Below, piece by piece: positions 16,572 through 32,902 of a stretch of 64,000 nt of DNA. Under the pieces are notes generated by a model. It had not been told where the DNA came from and ran no database searches. It worked only from the letters and a program-made list of their open reading frames with translations. Origin of the DNA: an uncultured Chloroflexia bacterium. GTDB taxonomy: Bacteria > Chloroflexota > Limnocylindria > Limnocylindrales > CSP1-4. Each line of letters begins with the position of its first letter. Positions within the stretch are counted from its first letter, which is position 1. Both the position numbers and the translations under genes were made by a program. The stretch lies in NCBI GenBank assembly GCA_963800795.1, contig CAWDCJ010000001.1, positions 280,855-344,854 of the forward strand. The letters are read 5' to 3'.

Positions 16572-18351
16572 ATGCCCGACGCCCCGGTCGCCACGTTCTT
16601 CCGGATCGAGATCGACGGCCAGCCGCTCGACCCCGCCGTGGTTTCGAGCGTTCTCCACCTCACCGTGGACGACCATCTCGTGCTCCCCGACACGTTCGAG
16701 ATCGTGCTCCAGGAGACGCCGGACAGGGACGTGGCCAACAAGGCGCACGCGAGGATCGGGTCGAGGGTCACCATCTCCGGGCGGGCGCTCAGCGACCATG
16801 CGCCGATGCCGCTCTTCACCGGCGAGGTGACGGCGCTCGAGGGCGAGTACCGCGAGGCCAAGGCGCCGACGTTGGTCATCCGTGGCTACGACCAGGGCCA
16901 CCGGCTCATGCACGGGCGGCGCTCGGCCGTGTTCCGGCAGCAGAAGTACTCGGATATCGCGCAGCAGATGGCAACGCAGCTGGGGCTCGATGTCGGGACC
17001 ATCGCTGACTCGCGGACCGTGTTCGAGTACGTCCACCAGGCAGGCCAGACCGCCTGGGAGTTCCTGACCGACAAGGCAGACGAGGTCGGCTTCCAGGTCG
17101 GCGTGAACGATGGCAAGTTCAACTTCGCCCCGCCGCCGGCCGCGTCGAGCGGCCCCGATGCCGGCGACCTCAACAGCACCAACCCGCTCCAGCTGGTCTT
17201 CGGTCAGGAGCTGAAGGAGTTCCACCCACGGATGACGGCCGGGAGCCAGGTGGCCAAGCGTCAGCGTTCTCGGCTGGGACCCGTCCAGCAAGAGCAGCGC
17301 TGATCGCGCGAGGAACCGACCACGGCGAGCGGCGTTCAGCTGTCGGACACGCCGCCATCCGTGGTTACCGCGTTCGGCTCGCCCGGGTACGTGAGCGGGG
17401 ACAGGCCACGCACCACGCAGGCCGTCGTGGAGGCCGCCGCCAAGTCCCACGCCGAGCAGCACGGCAGCGCCTTCGCGGGGGCGACCGGGATCGCTGACGG
17501 CAACCCCAGGCTCAAGGCCGGCGCATCGGTCAACGTCTCCCTGGTCGCCGCGCCCTTTGCCGGGCGCTACACGCTGACGCACACCCGCCACGTCTTCGAC
17601 AAGAAGGGCTACCGCGTGCACCTCGACATGAGCGGTCTCCAGGAGCGGACGCTCCTGTCACTGGCCTCGGGTGGCGGCGGTGGCGCCGGTTCGGGGAGCG
17701 GCGGTGGCGGCGGTTCCGGGGGCTCCGTGCGAGGCGTGCAGATCGGCCTGGTGACGGACAACCAGGACCCGGACAACCAGGGGCGCGTCCGGGTGCAGCT
17801 GCCCTACTTCGGACCTGACTTCGTGACCAACTGGGCCCGGGTCGTCGCTCCCGGAAACGGCCAGAACCGGGGCTTCGTGTGGATTCCCGAGGTCCACGAC
17901 GAGGTCCTCGTCGCGTTCGACCACGGGGACATCAGCGAGCCGTACGTGCTGGGCGGCCTCTGGAATGGCAAGGACCCACCCCCGCCGATCGAGCTCGACG
18001 GGGACCACCTCGAAGGCCCGCAAGATCGTCAGCCGGACCGGCCAGAAGCTCGTCTTCTCGGACGAGTCGGGCAAGGAGGGGATCCTGATCTCCTCCGCCG
18101 ACGGCACGATCTCGGTCCTGGTGGACTCGGCCAACAAGAAGGTCGTGATCACGTCCGACGGGAGCGGAACCGTGGAGATGAAGAGCGGGGGCGACTTCAC
18201 GATCGACTCCCAGGGCTCCGTGAAGATCAGCGGCACAGCCGGTGTCGAGATCAGCTCGTCGGCGAGCACGAAGGTGAGCGGAGATGGCCAGCTCTCGCTG
18301 GAGTCCTCGGGCATCACGTCCGTCAAGGGCTCCCAGGTCTCGCTGGGCTGA
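16572..18351 (+). pseudogene. VgrG-like spike (gpD + gp5 OB + beta-helix; Afp8-like), three frame changes in this assembly
   Basis: The gpD-like N-terminus is in ORF 16572..17303. A short excursion to another frame at 17257-17299 reads SVSVLGWDPSSKSSA. The sequence returns to the frame of ORF 17361..18764 (Gly-rich linker, then VTDNQDPDNQGRVRVQLPYF ... GGLWNGKDPPP). It switches near 18012-18020 to ORF 17965..18351 (RKIVSRTGQKLVFSDESG ... beta-helix). Confidence 0.9.
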
Positions 18352-18362
18352 GGAGGGCCGCC

Positions 18363-18764
18363 ATGCTCAATGACGAGTTCATCGGCGCCGGCTGGGCATT
18401 CCCCCTGCGGACCGACGCGGCCGGCGGGATCGCCCTGGTCACCCGGGAACGCGAGATCGAGGAAAGCATCCGGCTGATCCTGGGAACGGCCCACGGGGAG
18501 CGCCCCATGCGCCCCGAGTTCGGCTGCGGCATCCACGACGAGATCTTCGCCCTGGCCGACGCGGCCACGTTCGCCCGGATTGCCGCCGACGTGCGCCGCT
18601 CGCTGCGCCGCTGGGAGCCGCGCATCGACGTTCGCGACGTGGAGGTGACGGCGGACCCGGACGACCAATCCACGCTCTACATCGACATTCGCTACTCGAT
18701 CGGGTCGGCCAACAACCCGCGCAACCTCGTCTTCCCGTTCTACCTGATTCCCGCGGAGGAGTGA
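18363..18764 (+). CDS. baseplate wedge protein, GPW/gp25 family (Afp9-like)
   Basis: ATG 18363 within ORF 17361..18764. MLNDEFIGAGWAFPLR...ESIRLILGTAHGERPMRPEFGCGIHD is the gp25 signature. Confidence 0.9.
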   Translation: MLNDEFIGAGWAFPLRTDAAGGIALVTREREIEESIRLILGTAHGERPMRPEFGCGIHDEIFALADAATFARIAADVRRSLRRWEPRIDVRDVEVTADPDDQSTLYIDIRYSIGSANNPRNLVFPFYLIPAEE

Positions 18765-18767
18765 GCG

Positions 18768-20717
18768 ATGGCGCTGCCGGTCCCCAACCTGGACGATCGC
18801 CGCTTCCAGGATCTCGTCGACGACGCGAAGCGCCTCGTCCAGCAGCGCTGCCCGGAATGGACGGACCACAACGTCTCCGACCCCGGCGTGACCCTCATCG
18901 AGCTGTTCGCCTGGATGACCGACCAGCTCCTCTACCGCGTCAACCGCATCCCGGACCGGAACTACGTGAAGTTCCTGGAGCTGATCGGGATCCGGCTGTT
19001 CCCGCCGTCGGCGGCACGCGGCCAGGTCACGTTCTGGCTCTCCGGGCCGCAACCGGATGCGATTCGCATCGCCGGGGGGACCCAGGCAGCCACGATCCGC
19101 ACGGAGACCGACGACGCAATCGTCTTCACCACGCTCGACGACCTGCCGATCGTGCCTGTCTCGGTCACGGCTGCCTTCACCTCGACCGACGGCAAGAAGC
19201 ACGTCGACCGGACCACCGAGGCGCTCAATGCGCGTGACTTTCTTGCCTTCGAGACCCAGCCCAAGCCCGGCGACCTCCTGCTGGTGGGCCTGAGCGAGCC
19301 CGCCCCATCGAACGCGCTCCGCCTCCGGTTCGCCTGCACCATCGAGGGCGTCGGGGTGGATCCGACCTGGCCACCGCTCGCCTGGGAGGCCTGGACGGGC
19401 GCGGGCTGGGAGGCCTGCGACCTCGATCGCGACACCACCGGCGGCCTGAACCGCGACGGCGACGTGGTGATCCACCTGCCGGCGGGCCATGTCGCGTCGG
19501 TCATCGAGAAGATGCGCGCCGGCTGGGTTCGGGCGCGCGTCACCGAGCCCGAGGAAGGACAGCCCTTCTACTCGTCCTCGCCAAACGTCCGCGGCGTCGC
19601 CGCTGCCACGATCGGGGGCACCGCCGAGGCGGTTCACGCGGACGTCATCGTGGACGAGATCCTGGGCGTCGCCGAGGGTGTTGCCGGCGGCCGCTTCCTC
19701 GTCAAGCATCTCCCGGTCGTGCCCGGTGATCGGCCCATGACCGTCAGCGTCTCGGATGAGGAGGAGGGCTGGCAGGAGTGGACCCAGGTCCCCGATTTCG
19801 CCGGGTCCGGCCCGGCGGACCGCCACTTCGTCCTGGACGCGGTGGCCGGCGAGATCTCGTTCGGCCCGGGTGTCCGTGAGGCGGACGGGACGGTTCGCCA
19901 GTACGGCGCGGTCCCGCCGAAGGGCGCCCGGGTCCGGCTGGACGCATACCTGACTGGCGGCGGCCGGGCCGGCAACCTGGCCACGCGTGCGATCAGCGTC
20001 CTGAAGACCTCGATCCCGTACGTCTCGCGGGTGGAGAACCGGCGGTCGATGGCGGGCGGCGTGGACGGCGAGGACATCGAGAACGCGAAGCTGCGCGGCC
20101 CCATCTCGCTCCGCACGCGAGGTCGAGCGGTGACCACGGAGGACTTCGAGCACATCGCCCTGGAGGCTGCCCCGGAGCTGGCCAGGGTTCGGGCCGTTGC
20201 CGCCGGCGACGGCGCCGACGCGGGCTCGGTCCGCGTGCTCGTGGTTCCATCGGCGCAGGCCGAGGGGGGCCGGCTTCGCTTCGACCAGCTGCTCCCCTCG
20301 GACGAGACCCTGGCGCGCGTCGCCGCGCGGCTCGACGAGTGTCGCGTCGTCGGCACGCGCATCCTCGTGGAGCCGCCGGCCTATCGCGGGATCACGATCG
20401 TTGCGCGCCTCCGGGCGCGACCGCGCTTCAACCCCACACGCCTGCAGGACGAGGCGGTGCGCGCGATCTACGACTACTTCAACCCGATCTCGGGCGGGCC
20501 GGAGGGCACGGGGTGGCCGTTCGGCCGCCCGATCCAGGTGGGCGAGGTCTACGCGGTGCTGCAGGGGCTGCGCGGGACTGAGCTGGTGGAGGATGTCCGT
20601 CTCTTCGGGGCCGACCCGGTCACCGGCCAGCGGGGACAGGCGACCCAGCGTCTGGACCTCGAACCGCATGCCCTGGTGTTCAGCTACGAGCACCAGCTGC
20701 TGGTCGAAGGGGCGTAG
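18768..20717 (+). CDS. baseplate J-like protein (Afp11-like)
   Basis: 649-aa intact ORF. The N-terminus LDDRRFQDLVDDAKRLVQQRCPEWTDHNVSDPGVTLIELFAWM is typical of the family. Confidence 0.9.
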   Translation: MALPVPNLDDRRFQDLVDDAKRLVQQRCPEWTDHNVSDPGVTLIELFAWMTDQLLYRVNRIPDRNYVKFLELIGIRLFPPSAARGQVTFWLSGPQPDAIRIAGGTQAATIRTETDDAIVFTTLDDLPIVPVSVTAAFTSTDGKKHVDRTTEALNARDFLAFETQPKPGDLLLVGLSEPAPSNALRLRFACTIEGVGVDPTWPPLAWEAWTGAGWEACDLDRDTTGGLNRDGDVVIHLPAGHVASVIEKMRAGWVRARVTEPEEGQPFYSSSPNVRGVAAATIGGTAEAVHADVIVDEILGVAEGVAGGRFLVKHLPVVPGDRPMTVSVSDEEEGWQEWTQVPDFAGSGPADRHFVLDAVAGEISFGPGVREADGTVRQYGAVPPKGARVRLDAYLTGGGRAGNLATRAISVLKTSIPYVSRVENRRSMAGGVDGEDIENAKLRGPISLRTRGRAVTTEDFEHIALEAAPELARVRAVAAGDGADAGSVRVLVVPSAQAEGGRLRFDQLLPSDETLARVAARLDECRVVGTRILVEPPAYRGITIVARLRARPRFNPTRLQDEAVRAIYDYFNPISGGPEGTGWPFGRPIQVGEVYAVLQGLRGTELVEDVRLFGADPVTGQRGQATQRLDLEPHALVFSYEHQLLVEGA

Positions 20718-20721
20718 GGCC

Positions 20722-21262
20722 ATGCGCGGGCACATTCCGGGCCTTCCCTCGCCGCGCCCGCTGGGCGAGCAGCTCCCCGGCGTCTACCGCGACGACGACA
20801 TGACGCAGCGCCTCACGTCGGCCTTCGACGAGGTGCTGGCGGGGGTCGTGCAGGTGCTGGACTGCTTCCCGGCATACCTGGATCCGGCCCTGGCGCCGGA
20901 GGATTTCCTCGAATGGCTGGGGCGCTGGACGGGCGCGGCACTCGACGAGACGTGGCCCATCGAGCGTCGCCGCGCGTTCGTCGCCTCGGCGGTCGACCTC
21001 TTCCGGATCCGCGGGACCGTTGGTGGCCTCGCGGCGCACGTTGCCGTGTTCACCGGCGGCGAGGTCGAGATCGCCGAGCCGGGCGCCACCGCGTGGTCGC
21101 ATGATCCGGGCGCTTCGCTCCCGGCCGGCGGCTCGTCGGACCTGTTGGTCAGGGTGCGCGTCAAGGATCCCGCCAACGTCTCGTCGAGCCGGCCTGGACG
21201 CGCTCGTGGCGACCGCCAAGCCGGCCCACGTGCCCCATCGGATCGAGATCGTCGCCGCGTGA
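20722..21262 (+). pseudogene. P2 gpI-like baseplate/tail protein (Afp12-like), one frame change
   Basis: ATG 20722 in the frame of ORF 20197..21564 (LPGVYRDDDMTQRLTSAFDEVL...FRIRGTVGGL). The C-terminus LDALVATAKPAHVPHRIEIVAA lies in ORF 21020..21262. The switch is near 21187-21195 (agccggcctggac). Confidence 0.8.
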
Positions 21263-21394
21263 CCGGGGCGCGCCCGCTCTGCCGCTCGCTTGCTACGATG
21301 CGCGCACGTTTCGCCGGTCCGCGCGCATGCGGCCGGTCGGCCCGGCGGAGCGCACCTGCTGGATGCGGGCAGCAGGCTGTCAGGGGAGCGCCAC

Positions 21395-23595
21395 GTGATC
21401 GTCTGCTCCAAGTGCGGGTTTCAGAACACGAGCAGCGACAGCTTCTGCGGTTCCTGCGGAAGCTTCCTGGAGTGGACCGGGGCCAAGGGTCGAGGAGCCG
21501 GCCGTCGAGGCGGTCGCGCCGGAGCCCGAGCCGCAGCCGGCGGAGCCGGAGCACCAGTCCCTGATCGGGCGTGTCCGCGAGGTCGTGGGGCTCGGGGGCG
21601 CGACGGCACCGGGCTGCCGACGTCGGCGCCGAATCACCGGGAGCGGCCGGAGCGCCGGTCTCGGCTGGCGTCGTGGAGCCTGCCGGCGGGGCCCTCCAAC
21701 CAGCAGAGGACGCGGGTGAGGCCGCGGTCGGATCAGCGCCCGTCGTGATCTCGGGGGCCCGAATCTACCGGGTGACCGAGGCGAGCCCGGCGCCTGAACC
21801 GCGCACCCATGCCCGAGCCGGTCGCCGCGCCGGTGGCTCCGCCTGAGCCGATCCCGGAACCCGCGGCCGAATCTGTGCCGCAGCCCGAGCCCGAGCCTGA
21901 GCTACCAGCACGGTCGGCGTCCCAGCCCGATGCCCGCACCAGAACCGGCAGCCGTTCCCGAGGCCCAGCGGTTCCCGCACCAGAGCCGGCAGCGGTTCCC
22001 GAGGCCCAGCCGGCCGCGCTTCCCGAGCCCGCACCTGCACCCGAGCCCGCGGCCCAGCTGAGCCGGCATGCCGAGCCGGCAGCGGTTCCCGCAGCCGAGC
22101 CGGCACCGGCGCCCGAACCGGCACCCATGCGGCCGAGCCGGCACCCGAATGCGCCCGAGCCCGCACCCGCACCCGAGCCCGGCATCCCGCTGCCCGAGCC
22201 TGCGCCTGCCGCGCCGCACGCGGCCCAGCCCGCGCCCGAGACGGAGCCGATCGCCGCACCCACGGCCCCGGCGGAGTCCCAGCCTGCCGCCGTGCAAGCG
22301 CCCGCGCCCGAGGGGGCACCAGCACCGGTGCCTGAGCCCGAGCTCGGAGCCGGCATCGGGCGCCGCTGCCAGCCCCTGCCCCCACGCCCGCCCCTCCGGC
22401 CGCGCCCCGGATTCGTCCCGCTCTGGCGAGCCCATCCGCGGCGCTGCCCAGGCCGCGGCCCCTGGTGGAAGTTGCCCGCCCAGCACCACCTCCGGCATCG
22501 GTGCCGCCTGTCGTCGACGTGCCTCCGCATGCCTCGCCGGCGCAGCCGGCTGCCATCTCCCCGGCGGCCGTGCCGCCCGTTCAACCACCGCCGGCTCGCC
22601 CGACCCGTGCACCTACGCCGCCGATCGCACGTCCGCCCGCAAGTGCGGCCAGCGCCGCGGCCTCCCAGCCGGCCCAACCCGCCGCGGTGGTGCCCGCGCC
22701 GTCACCGCCCGAGCAACCCGCATCGCGGCAACCGGTCGCGCTTCGGCCGGGACCTGAGCGCGCCCGACAGGTCGCCCGCCAGCAGGTCGAGACGCCTCCG
22801 GCAAACCCGGGCGACCTCGTCTGCGGGAACTGCAGGATCGGCAACGACCCGACCCGGAAGTTCTGCCGTCGGTGCGGGCAGTCGCTGGCAGAGGCGGTCG
22901 TCGCGCCGGCCCGAAAGCTGCCCTGGTACCGGCGCCTGTTCCGCCGGAAGGAGACGGTCGTCGCGGCAGGCGAGCGGCCCCGGACCATGCGCACCGACGG
23001 CCAGGGAGCGCGGACCGGCTTGTCGCTCGGTCGGCTGCTCCGGATGGTCGTCCAGGTCATCGTCATCGCCGCCATCGTCGGCGCAGTGGTCGGCTACGCC
23101 GTCGTTCCTGGCTGGCGGGACGGCGTGAACTCCGCGATCTCGTCAGTCAGGCAGATCGTGGCGCCGAACCTGGTGACGGTGCGGACATCCGGCCAGGCGA
23201 GCGGCCCCGCGTCCAAGGGACACCCGGCGCAGGCCGCGTTCGACGGGTTCAGCAACACCTACTGGGCAGCGTCTGCCACGGGAGGCGCGACGCCGACGAT
23301 CAACGCCAGCTTCAACCCGCCGACCGACGTGGCGAAGATCCTCGTGACATCGGGTGCCGTGCCGGACTACCAGGGGAACCTGCGACCGCACGACATCACG
23401 GTCCAGTTCCTCGACGCCGCGGGCGCGATCGTCGCAGCCAAGGACCTCGAGCTCAAGGACACCCATGATCCGCAGTCGTTCGATGTGTCGGCGAAGGCGG
23501 CCACCGCCTTCCGCCTGATCGTGCGCTCGGTCTACGCGTCCAGCGGCGGCGCCGACGTCGCCATCACCGAGGTCGAGTTCCTGGCCGCGAAATGA
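21395..23595 (+). pseudogene. double zinc-ribbon / very long Pro-rich repeat / TM / discoidin-like membrane protein (paralogue of 781..2205), several frame changes
   Basis: GTG 21395 after GGGGAG (VIVCSKCGFQNTSSDSFCGSCGSFLEW). The Pro-rich PEPAPA region reads sensibly only by hopping frames near 21487, about 21600, about 21800, 21940-21985 and about 22400-22470. The final ORF 22465..23595 carries a second ribbon (CGNCRIGNDPTRKFCRRCG), the TM VVQVIVIAAIVGAVVGYAVV and a discoidin-like AAFDGFSNTYW...ITEVEFL. Confidence 0.7.
21937..22018 (+). repeat. 41-bp imperfect tandem repeat (2 copies) within the Pro-rich spacer
   Basis: caccagaaccggcagccgttcccgaggcccagc at 21937 and caccagagccggcagcggttcccgaggcccagc at 21978. 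31 of the first 33 nt are identical. Confidence 0.8.
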
Positions 23596-30734: not shown

Positions 30735-31575
30735 GCGGCGGGGCGACGCCGCCCGGCCGTTCTCCCGTGCCGGGCTGGCCAGCAGCGGCGCCCGCGCCTC
30801 CGCCTCTGCCGCGCCACCCATCCGGTCCGGTGCTCGGTGCATCGGTCCTCGGCCCGCTGGTTGACGTCACGATCGCGCGGCCTGCTTGGGCGCCGCCGGA
30901 TCCTCCTGGTCGGCCTCCTCGCGATGGCGCCGGTCGGCGTCGCGCTCATCCTCGCCCTCGGTGGATCGGGAGCCGACTGCCGAGGACCTCCGGCAGCTCT
31001 ACGAGTCGCTCGTGATGACCACGGTCGTGCCGCTCGTCGCCCTGATCCTGGGCACGACCGCGATCGGCGCGGAGATCGACGACGGGACGGTGATCCACCT
31101 CCTGGCCCGGCCGGTCGGCCGGAGCTGGATCGTGCTCGCCAAGATGCTCGTGGCCGCGACCAGCGGCGTGATGCTGTGCGGAACCTCGGCGCTGCTGACG
31201 GGGCTCCTGCTCGTCGGGCTGGATGTTCCGCGCCTCGTGCTGGGCATGCTCGGGGGCACGGCGGTCGCGGTGATCGCCTACACGGCGGTCTTCGTGACCC
31301 TCTCCGTGTGGTCGGGGCGGGCGCTCATTGTCGGGCTGGGCTACGTCCTGCTCTGGGAAGGGTTCATCGCATCGTTCTTCTCGGGAACCCGGCTCCTGTC
31401 GATTCGCGAGTACGGGCTGGCGGTCGCAGCCGGGATCGCGGGCTCCGATGCAGGGTCGCTCGCCCAGGACGTGGCTCCGGTGACCGGCCTGGTCCTGGCG
31501 GCGCTCGTGACGATCCTGGCGTTCGTCCTCGGTGCGCGGCGCCTGGCCCGGTTCGAGATCTCGGACGCGGGGTAG
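30731..31575 (+). pseudogene. ABC-2 type transporter permease, two frame changes in the first 240 nt
   Basis: GTG 30731 (GTGA overlap). The N-terminus reads through three frames, switching near 30868-30875 and 30960-30970. The remainder is ORF 30886..31575 (hydrophobic, ends RLARFEISDAG). Confidence 0.7.
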
Positions 31576-32772: not shown

Positions 32773-32902
32773 GCCTCGACCCGGCGCGGTCAGAGCGCGG
32801 GCCGCGTCGGGCCGTCTGTGCGTCCGAGGAGCCGTCGGAGGGTCGCGCCCACCGCCGAGGCGATCGTGCGCGCGAGCCCGACCAGGCCGTCGATGCCCAT
32901 CG

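Follow-up and report, generated by a model that had tools for sequence, protein, structure and literature searches.

We describe here a gene within a contractile injection system (CIS) locus on a 64,000-nucleotide stretch of DNA, hereafter the window, from an uncultured Chloroflexia bacterium of the Limnocylindrales (GenBank assembly GCA_963800795.1, contig CAWDCJ010000001.1, positions 280,855 to 344,854 of the forward strand). The gene starts at position 21395 and is the next plus-strand gene after the baseplate wedge gene gpI. As judged from sequence comparisons, its product belongs to the family of CisA (SCO4242) of Streptomyces coelicolor, with which it is homologous and collinear. We consider it probable that this gene specifies a membrane adaptor of the CisA family, for a type IId-like CIS, in a high-GC, Limnocylindria-type member of the Chloroflexota (GC content of the window, 70-75%). 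In the window the gene is spread over several reading frames, most likely as a result of assembly indels, or of very recent lesions at most. Both the architecture of the protein and its proposed function have already been published for CisA, and the finding is in that sense a rediscovery.

Homology to CisA

The protein now called CisA was described as Sco4242, the product of a gene that occupies the fibre slot in the type IId cluster of S. coelicolor. It has a C-terminal domain of ~150 residues that is conserved, a transmembrane (TM) helix that is strongly predicted and, before the TM helix, a Cys-rich putative Zn-binding domain of ~50 residues (Vladimirov 2023, PMC10020575). HHpred analysis in that study assigned residues 5-28 and 219-246 to Zn ribbons (PMC10020575, Supplementary Data 7), and matched residues 319-464 to NADase_NGA (99.7%), APC10, muskelin, F5/8 type C and CBM32 (PMC10020575). 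The name CisA was given by Casu 2025 (PMC12237407), who found the protein to be membrane-bound with an N-in/C-out topology, as established by PhoA-LacZ fusions. CisA is not seen in the cryo-EM particle, and CIS contraction, stress-induced death and timely development all depend on it; a contact of its cytoplasmic part with Cis11 is predicted by AlphaFold-Multimer (PMC12237407).

For our comparisons, residues 1-310 of CisA were taken from the AlphaFold model in the eLife supplement. BLASTP aligned CisA with the window protein at 38% identity (E=2e-11) over ribbon 2 and the motifs PW(W/Y)RRLF and AG(D/E)RPR. When alignments of the family were compared with CisA using hhalign, residues 221-307, including the TM helix, were matched at 99.3-99.4% (E=4e-20 and 8e-22), and ribbon 1 was matched to residues 5-31 at 94.7% (E=6e-8). 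Ribbon 2 of the family aligns to CisA residues 223-240 and its TM helix to residues 285-307, and at the position of the basic juxtamembrane stretch CisA reads APWWRRLFGGRR...AGDRPR.

A second line of evidence comes from plasmid-borne relatives. A tblastn search of plasmids with the C-terminal part of the window protein returned Streptomycetaceae only (21 records), including a plasmid of Kitasatospora sp. NBC_00070 (E=3e-31 over 98% of the query) and pSCAT of S. cattleya. At both loci the matching ORF (open reading frame) follows gpI in a CIS cluster and encodes a ribbon, a spacer, a second ribbon, PWWRR, a TM helix and a discoidin domain. The S. cattleya genome (pSCAT) was reported to carry a Sco4242 homologue (Vladimirov 2023, PMC10020575). 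The J protein of the window is 58% identical to that of the Kitasatospora plasmid and 55% identical to that of pSCAT. Horizontal transfer between Streptomyces and Chloroflexota has been proposed (PMC12998442), and these values fit that proposal.

Domain architecture and predicted topology

The GTG codon at 21395 is preceded, six bases upstream, by the Shine-Dalgarno-like sequence GGGGAG, and it agrees with the M/V-I-V-C N-terminus of intact homologues. From this start, the frame-corrected protein comprises two CxxC-x10-CxxC ribbons, at residues 4-21 and 475-492, which account for all eight of its Cys residues. Pfam matches to zinc-ribbon families lie under the curated cut-offs, yet they are consistent with ribbons. 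The Cys, F17 and W27 columns of ribbon 1 are invariant (alignment A3), as are the Cys columns of ribbon 2 in 85 homologues. Matches to the Ser/Thr phosphatase family PRK14559 of NCBIfam were set aside, as they cover the zinc-ribbon motif only (E ~0.01).

Shortly after ribbon 1 comes a block, SLIGRVREVVGLGG, that takes the form G-L-I-x-R-V-K-x-A-V-G-L in full-length homologues and that might be a partner-binding helix. The two ribbons are separated by a spacer whose composition is dominated by Pro (28%), Ala (25%) and Glu (10%). The spacer contains a 41-nt tandem duplication at 21933-22010 (1.9 copies, 94% match) that encodes PAPEPAAVPEAQ twice, in two different frames, as 41 is not divisible by three; this is consistent with a repeat of 42 nt from which one base was lost. 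Beyond ribbon 2, PW(Y/W)RR in the basic stretch is nearly invariant among homologues.

A single segment of the protein, encoded at 23035-23106, is strongly hydrophobic. It coincides with a helix at residues 114-139 of an AlphaFold2 (AF2) model that was computed for 22687-23592 from 85 homologues, with a mean pLDDT (predicted local distance difference test score) of 87. The 40 residues before the helix contain 11 Lys and Arg, and those after it 4. Taken together, the hydrophobic helix, this positive-inside bias and the AF2 helix predict an N-in/C-out topology.

As for the C-terminal domain, its best-supported assignment is to NADase_discoid (NCBIfam NF047619; E=3e-19, 69.4 bits against a cut-off of 38), together with matches to NADase_transloc (PF25302; 2e-5) and to F5_F8_type_C (PF00754; 5.5e-4, under the gathering score). 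AF2 models the domain as a beta-sandwich with a pLDDT of 96-98. Structural matches retrieved by Foldseek (probability 1.00, E 7e-9 to 1e-6) comprise APC10/DOC1, a Bacteroides F5/8 type C domain, the lectin domain of lectinolysin and many CBM32 modules, and include 3nng (F5/8 type C), 7blg and 2v72. The Pfam and NCBIfam scans revealed no fibre family, nor any fibre-like repeat, coiled coil or trimerisation domain.

A sequence-only reading of the window had described an N-terminal CxxC ribbon, a long Pro-rich spacer, a second ribbon with a basic stretch, a single TM helix and a C-terminal discoidin-like domain. All of these elements are found where that reading put them (Table 1); the helix is borne out by hydrophobicity, and the F5/8 type C profile search and AlphaFold modelling that it had called for recovered a discoidin-type fold. 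Its placement of the ribbons inside and of the lectin-like domain outside the cell likewise agrees with the charge bias and with the published topology of CisA (PMC12237407). Sequence, structure prediction and homology thus point to a protein with its ribbons and spacer in the cytoplasm, its basic stretch at the inner face of the membrane and its lectin-type domain outside.

Table 1. Features of the cisA-like gene and of its neighbourhood (window coordinates)
Feature	Position	Strand	Evidence or remark
Pvc16_N cap protein and AAA ATPase		-	CIS cluster members
Sheath, gp19-type tube, CIS_tube, VgrG, gp25, J, gpI		+	CIS cluster
Baseplate J / Cis11-like wedge protein, 649 aa, intact	18768..20717	+	Pfam Baseplate_J E=2.8e-15
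gpI / Tail_P2_I wedge protein	20722..21262	+	TIGR02242 E=3e-30; Pfam Tail_P2_I 2.8e-12
Shine-Dalgarno-like GGGGAG, then GTG start (21395)	21383..21397	+	direct sequence reading
Zinc ribbon 1, CSKCGFQNTSSDSFCGSC	21404..21457	+	frame 2; Pfam DZR 2.9e-5, Zn_Ribbon_1 3.2e-5
Pro/Ala/Glu-rich spacer, 438 residues after frame correction	21489..22821	+	
Conserved short motif, SLIGRVREVVGLGG	21558..21599	+	frame 0; found in several phyla
Zinc ribbon 2, CGNCRIGNDPTRKFCRRC	22822..22875	+	frame 1; AF2 pLDDT ~95
Basic juxtamembrane stretch, RKLPWYRRLFRRK	22912..22950	+	followed in the family by a conserved AAGERP motif
Single TM helix, LLRMVVQVIVIAAIVGAVVGYAVV	23035..23106	+	top Kyte-Doolittle 19-residue window, 2.6
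Discoidin / NADase-type beta-sandwich, predicted extracytoplasmic, glycan-binding type	23170..23592	+	stop codon 23593-23595
AAA/STAND and Trans_reg_C regulator, 1023 aa	23564..26635	-	Pfam Trans_reg_C, AAA_22

A broken reading frame in a conserved gene

No ORF spans 21395-23595 in the ORF list of the window, and a single ORF over that interval of the sequence as given was rejected, since the frames differ. Expressed as coordinate modulo 3, ribbon 1 is in frame 2, the SLIGRVREVVGLGG block in frame 0, the APVVISGARIYRVTE block in frame 1 and the PEPAPA stretch in frame 2 again, and everything from 22357 on is in frame 1. Frame 2 read from 21395 meets a stop codon at 21746-21748. The reference for locating the breaks was the closest relative, L008, whose ORF is intact (727 aa; 96% protein identity in the C-terminal part and 88% DNA identity over the locus). 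Relative to L008, the window gene has six frame-breaking indels, at ~21483 (+1), 21614 (+1 or +7), 21802 (+1), ~21931 (+1), 21969 (-1) and 22355 (+2), and its correction yields a protein of 731 aa. When each segment of the window is translated in the frame that applies to it, the products are collinear with the intact protein of L008 and nearly identical to it. The sequence-only reading had taken the whole as one protein. All the elements of that protein are present and in the same order as in intact relatives, but they are distributed over several frames that had been joined silently.

Two other genes of the cluster are affected, as judged against intact VgrG and gpI orthologues from three relatives (L001, L005 and L008). 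In gpI, one nucleotide at 21187 is extra compared with L005 and L008 and shifts the frame from 1 to 2; in agreement, tblastn with the gpI proteins of L001 and L005 gives a window match split over two frames. VgrG has a frame break within 17980-18023, near 18010, where 2 nt are missing and the frame passes from 0 to 1. Further single extra bases relative to L008 were noticed outside the cluster, at 30875-30971, 32177 and 32779-32788. They fall at the starts of the genes for an ABC-2 membrane protein and a 309-aa protein, whose tblastn matches do not begin until residues 36 and 135.

The state of the gene in relatives was assessed at the 65 loci that hold both of its ends, classed by sequencing type. 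One stop-free frame runs from ribbon 1 to the C-terminal domain in 52 of them, in three phyla. The ORF is intact in all 26 short-read relatives and in 26 of the 39 relatives from long-read metagenome-assembled genomes (MAGs), and the breaks are confined to MFD long-read MAG contigs (13/39; Fisher p=0.0009). At L005, the interruption consists only of a 100-N scaffold gap. One of the short-read relatives, L009, has an unbroken frame of 596 codons; at 81% identity in the spacer it is too divergent to place single indels.

With the frame corrected and L008 as the reference, the ratio of nonsynonymous to synonymous substitution rates (dN/dS) amounts to 0.12 in the C-terminal part and to 0.15 in the second half of the spacer; J has a value of 0.05. 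Both regions of the target gene used for this calculation lie downstream of every break. A plot of GC content at third codon positions was uninformative within the Pro/Ala-rich stretch, as all three codon positions are GC-rich there. Programmed frameshifting and phase variation were considered and rejected, because the break points are common to no relative and the spacer repeats of relatives are in-frame hexamers.

Distribution, synteny and gene calling

Searching proteins with the C-terminal 269 residues as the query returned 307 relatives. In one of them, P0050 (468 aa), one ORF encodes the full set of elements, from the two ribbons and the spacer to the TM helix and the discoidin domain, and its locus is a syntenic CIS cluster with J, I, the target gene and a convergent regulator. 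The target gene of L001 forms one ORF of 468 aa. Across the family, the length of the whole protein ranges from 400 to ~900 aa.

We also scanned one genome per species with a search seeded by the ribbon-2 peptide pattern alone. The best 80 loci belong to MAGs of Limnocylindrales and of other Chloroflexota, to Dormibacterota and to a small number of actinobacterial MAGs; Streptomyces is not among them. At least 3.5 kb of upstream sequence was available for 64 loci, and in 61 of these gpI ends 19-263 nt (median 118) before ribbon 1. As the loci were not selected on any CIS feature, this linkage is real. It also answers the earlier call for a survey of co-occurrence with baseplate genes. The exceptions are two Acidimicrobiaceae MAGs (L079 and L085), in which J and I lie ~6.5 kb upstream with other genes between, and L055, in which neither gpI nor J was seen upstream.

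Annotation of these genes is uneven. For ten relatives (P0009-P0017 and P0020), the called product is a 202-aa protein that starts with MRTDG just before the TM helix. On a plasmid of S. cadmiisoli (L090, 5992-6792), the Prokaryotic Genome Annotation Pipeline (PGAP) split the locus and called a 266-aa 'zinc ribbon domain-containing protein'. Such short or split calls occur even where the long ORF is open. Because gene callers shorten or split the gene in this manner, annotation-based surveys miss ribbon 1 and the spacer and under-count the gene.

The CisA-like protein of the Kitasatospora sp. NBC_00070 plasmid (L088, 7780-9765) has 662 aa. Its spacer starts with poly-Gly and poly-Pro runs and continues as an extremely Asp/Glu-rich rather than a Pro/Ala-rich segment. 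The presence of a spacer is therefore conserved, and its composition is not.

Profile scans indicate that the window encodes a complete CIS cluster. No PAAR gene was found between VgrG and gp25 in the window (18348-18363). At the more distant relative L001 a 128-aa PAAR protein is encoded between these two genes, and Cis10/PAAR is likewise missing from S. coelicolor.

On the other side of the target gene, the 3' end of the convergent regulator gene overlaps that of the target gene by 32 nt. Orthologues of this regulator additionally match Pfam WHD_MalT and BTAD. A regulator of the same type converges on the target gene within 600 nt downstream at 53 of 70 relative loci, in Chloroflexota and Dormibacterota. 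As the arrangement is kept at so many loci, the protein probably serves this CIS lineage as a dedicated regulator.

Weighing the interpretations

The state of the reading frame raises the question of whether the window harbours a genuine pseudogene, with real frameshifts in cisA, gpI and VgrG and a CIS locus in decay in this strain. Seven frame-breaking indels between 21187 and 22355, plus the one in VgrG near 18010, would be explained in this way; the flanking J, regulator and ABC ATPase genes are clean, and many of the extra bases lie outside homopolymer runs, which also speaks for true lesions. However, each out-of-frame block has remained near-identical to the intact L008 protein, dN/dS is low (0.12-0.15) downstream of the breaks, and broken copies occur only in long-read MAG contigs, with none in 26 short-read assemblies. 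Moreover, scattered extra bases relative to L008 are also present in unrelated genes, near 30971 and 32177, as would fit assembly noise. We thus regard decay of the locus as unlikely. As short-read relatives are intact, dN/dS is low, extra bases are scattered and break points are not shared, assembly errors, or at most very recent lesions, are the most likely cause of the six breaks. They do not reflect a real multi-gene arrangement. That arrangement would consist of at least two separate genes, one for a small ribbon protein at 21395 and another for a 376-aa ribbon-TM-discoidin protein from GTG 22465, with Pro-rich DNA in between that is either non-coding or part of a different gene. Such a division matches the raw ORF list, public gene callers often report only a 202-aa or ~300-aa C-terminal product, and PGAP splits the S. 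cadmiisoli locus likewise. Nevertheless, we give it almost no credence: the 52 of 65 relative loci with one stop-free frame, in three phyla, run contrary to the earlier concern that the Pro-rich region might separate unrelated genes. The split at L005 is due to the scaffold gap only, short calls have their starts within the conserved region or where contigs end, and CisA itself holds both ribbons in one protein of 468 aa.

As for function, the slot after gpI and the lectin-type C-terminal domain could suggest a true tail fibre, or receptor-binding protein, on released extracellular particles, with the discoidin domain binding glycans of target cells. 'Putative fibre' was the original reading of Sco4242, and Sco4242 peptides were found in purified particles (Vladimirov 2023, PMC10020575). 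However, the ribbons and the lectin domain lie on either side of a TM helix that is strongly predicted and shows a positive-inside bias, and the Pfam and NCBIfam scans gave no repeat, coiled coil or trimerisation domain. For CisA, the membrane localisation, the N-in/C-out topology and the absence from the cryo-EM particle are experimental (PMC12237407). A fibre therefore appears very improbable. The alternative already favoured by the sequence-only reading, a protein that tethers or triggers a cytoplasmic CIS, is in essence the published CisA model, and its application to the window protein would follow by homology.

Our preferred interpretation, a CisA-family membrane adaptor, has several points against it. 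The window lacks an intact ORF, and translation from 21395 ends at 21746. The breaks are clustered, with seven in 1.2 kb, whereas J (2 kb) and the regulator gene (3 kb) are free of them, and this clustering could mean that part of the locus is really decaying. The C-terminal domain was compared with that of CisA indirectly, through the published HHpred table and the Streptomycetaceae homologues. Furthermore, in Streptomyces itself the direct contact between CisA and Cis11 is an unproven prediction (PMC12237407), and Casu 2025 likens the C-terminal domain of CisA to solute-binding domains (PMC12237407).

Proposed mechanism

If the window protein is indeed a membrane adaptor, its free cytoplasmic end would consist of the N-terminal ribbon and the short conserved motif, and the ~440-residue Pro/Ala/Glu-rich spacer would serve as a tether. 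Ribbon 2 and the basic PWYRR stretch would lie against the inner face of the membrane, followed by one TM helix and, outside the membrane, by the discoidin/NADase-type glycan-binding domain. By homology with S. coelicolor CisA, the protein would recruit free-floating cytoplasmic CIS particles to the membrane, allowing them to fire. The contact would probably involve the Cis11/J wedge, and the outer lectin-like domain may be a sensor or an oligomerisation switch. We infer such a recruiting and firing role in the Chloroflexota organism from what is known of CisA.

It is tempting to speculate that the N-terminal end functions as a hook, with ribbon 1 and the SLIGRVREVVGLGG motif binding the baseplate and the spacer acting as a tether of adjustable reach. 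This idea is our own, and it stems from the conservation of that end across phyla while the length and the composition of the spacer vary.

Significance

To our knowledge, CisA is the sole factor so far known to couple free-floating cytoplasmic CIS to the membrane, and we know of reports of it only in Streptomyces and other actinomycetes. What is new here is the extension of the family to Limnocylindria-type Chloroflexota and Dormibacterota, together with its tight pairing with a STAND/Trans_reg_C regulator and the variability of its spacer. In a 2026 study of CIS in Chloroflexota, no close cisA homologue was found in Roseiflexus. The relatives described here widen the likely range of the cytoplasmic firing mode.

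A broader proposal can be made, although we hold it tentatively and with confidence a little short of even: one CIS lineage, having spread through Limnocylindria-type Chloroflexota, Dormibacterota and Actinomycetota, might have CisA-type adaptors as a near-obligatory accessory, almost always accompanied by the same kind of convergent STAND/Trans_reg_C regulator. If so, uncultured soil phyla would commonly possess cytoplasmic, membrane-triggered CIS involved in regulated cell death, which would then not be peculiar to Streptomyces. The N-terminal ribbon and GLIxRVKxAVGL would then be the baseplate hook, and the spacer would set its reach into the cytoplasm. The N-terminal ribbon and motif, together with the natural series of spacer lengths, lend themselves to direct tests of the way in which CisA engages the baseplate. 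As a practical warning, surveys that rely on annotation will count this gene too rarely.

Comparison with known systems

Afp13- and PVC13-type fibres resemble the window protein in their position after the baseplate wedge genes and in having a C-terminal binding domain. In contrast with these trimeric, shafted fibres without a membrane anchor, the window protein has a low-complexity spacer in place of fibre repeats or a trimeric shaft, and it has a TM helix and predicted cytoplasmic ribbons. Given this helix and these ribbons, it would be anchored in the membrane of the producer rather than on the particle.

The C-terminal domain shares its fold and family with the translocation domain of the Streptococcus pyogenes NADase SPN (NF047619 / PF25302), CBM32 and F5/8 type C modules. 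Unlike the SPN and CBM32 modules, it is predicted to be borne by a TM helix at the outer face of the membrane and is not joined to a toxin or a glycosidase.

A functional analogy can be drawn with the TssJLM complex of the type VI secretion system, as in both cases a contractile machine would be linked to the cytoplasmic membrane of its producer. The analogy does not extend to homology: the window protein is a single bitopic protein without a trans-envelope channel, and the contact made by CisA is transient rather than a stable anchor (Casu 2025, PMC12237407).

With CisA itself, the differences are the host, an uncultured Limnocylindria-type member of the Chloroflexota instead of an actinomycete, the spacer, of 438 Pro/Glu-rich residues compared with ~190 aa in CisA, and the six frame breaks of the window copy. 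The likeness covers the position of the gene, which in both cases comes right after the wedge genes for J (Cis11) and I (Cis12) in a type IId-like CIS cluster, and the whole order of elements, namely a Zn ribbon, a disordered spacer, a second Zn ribbon, PW(W/Y)RR, AG(D/E)RP, the TM helix and a NADase/discoidin-type domain of ~150 aa.

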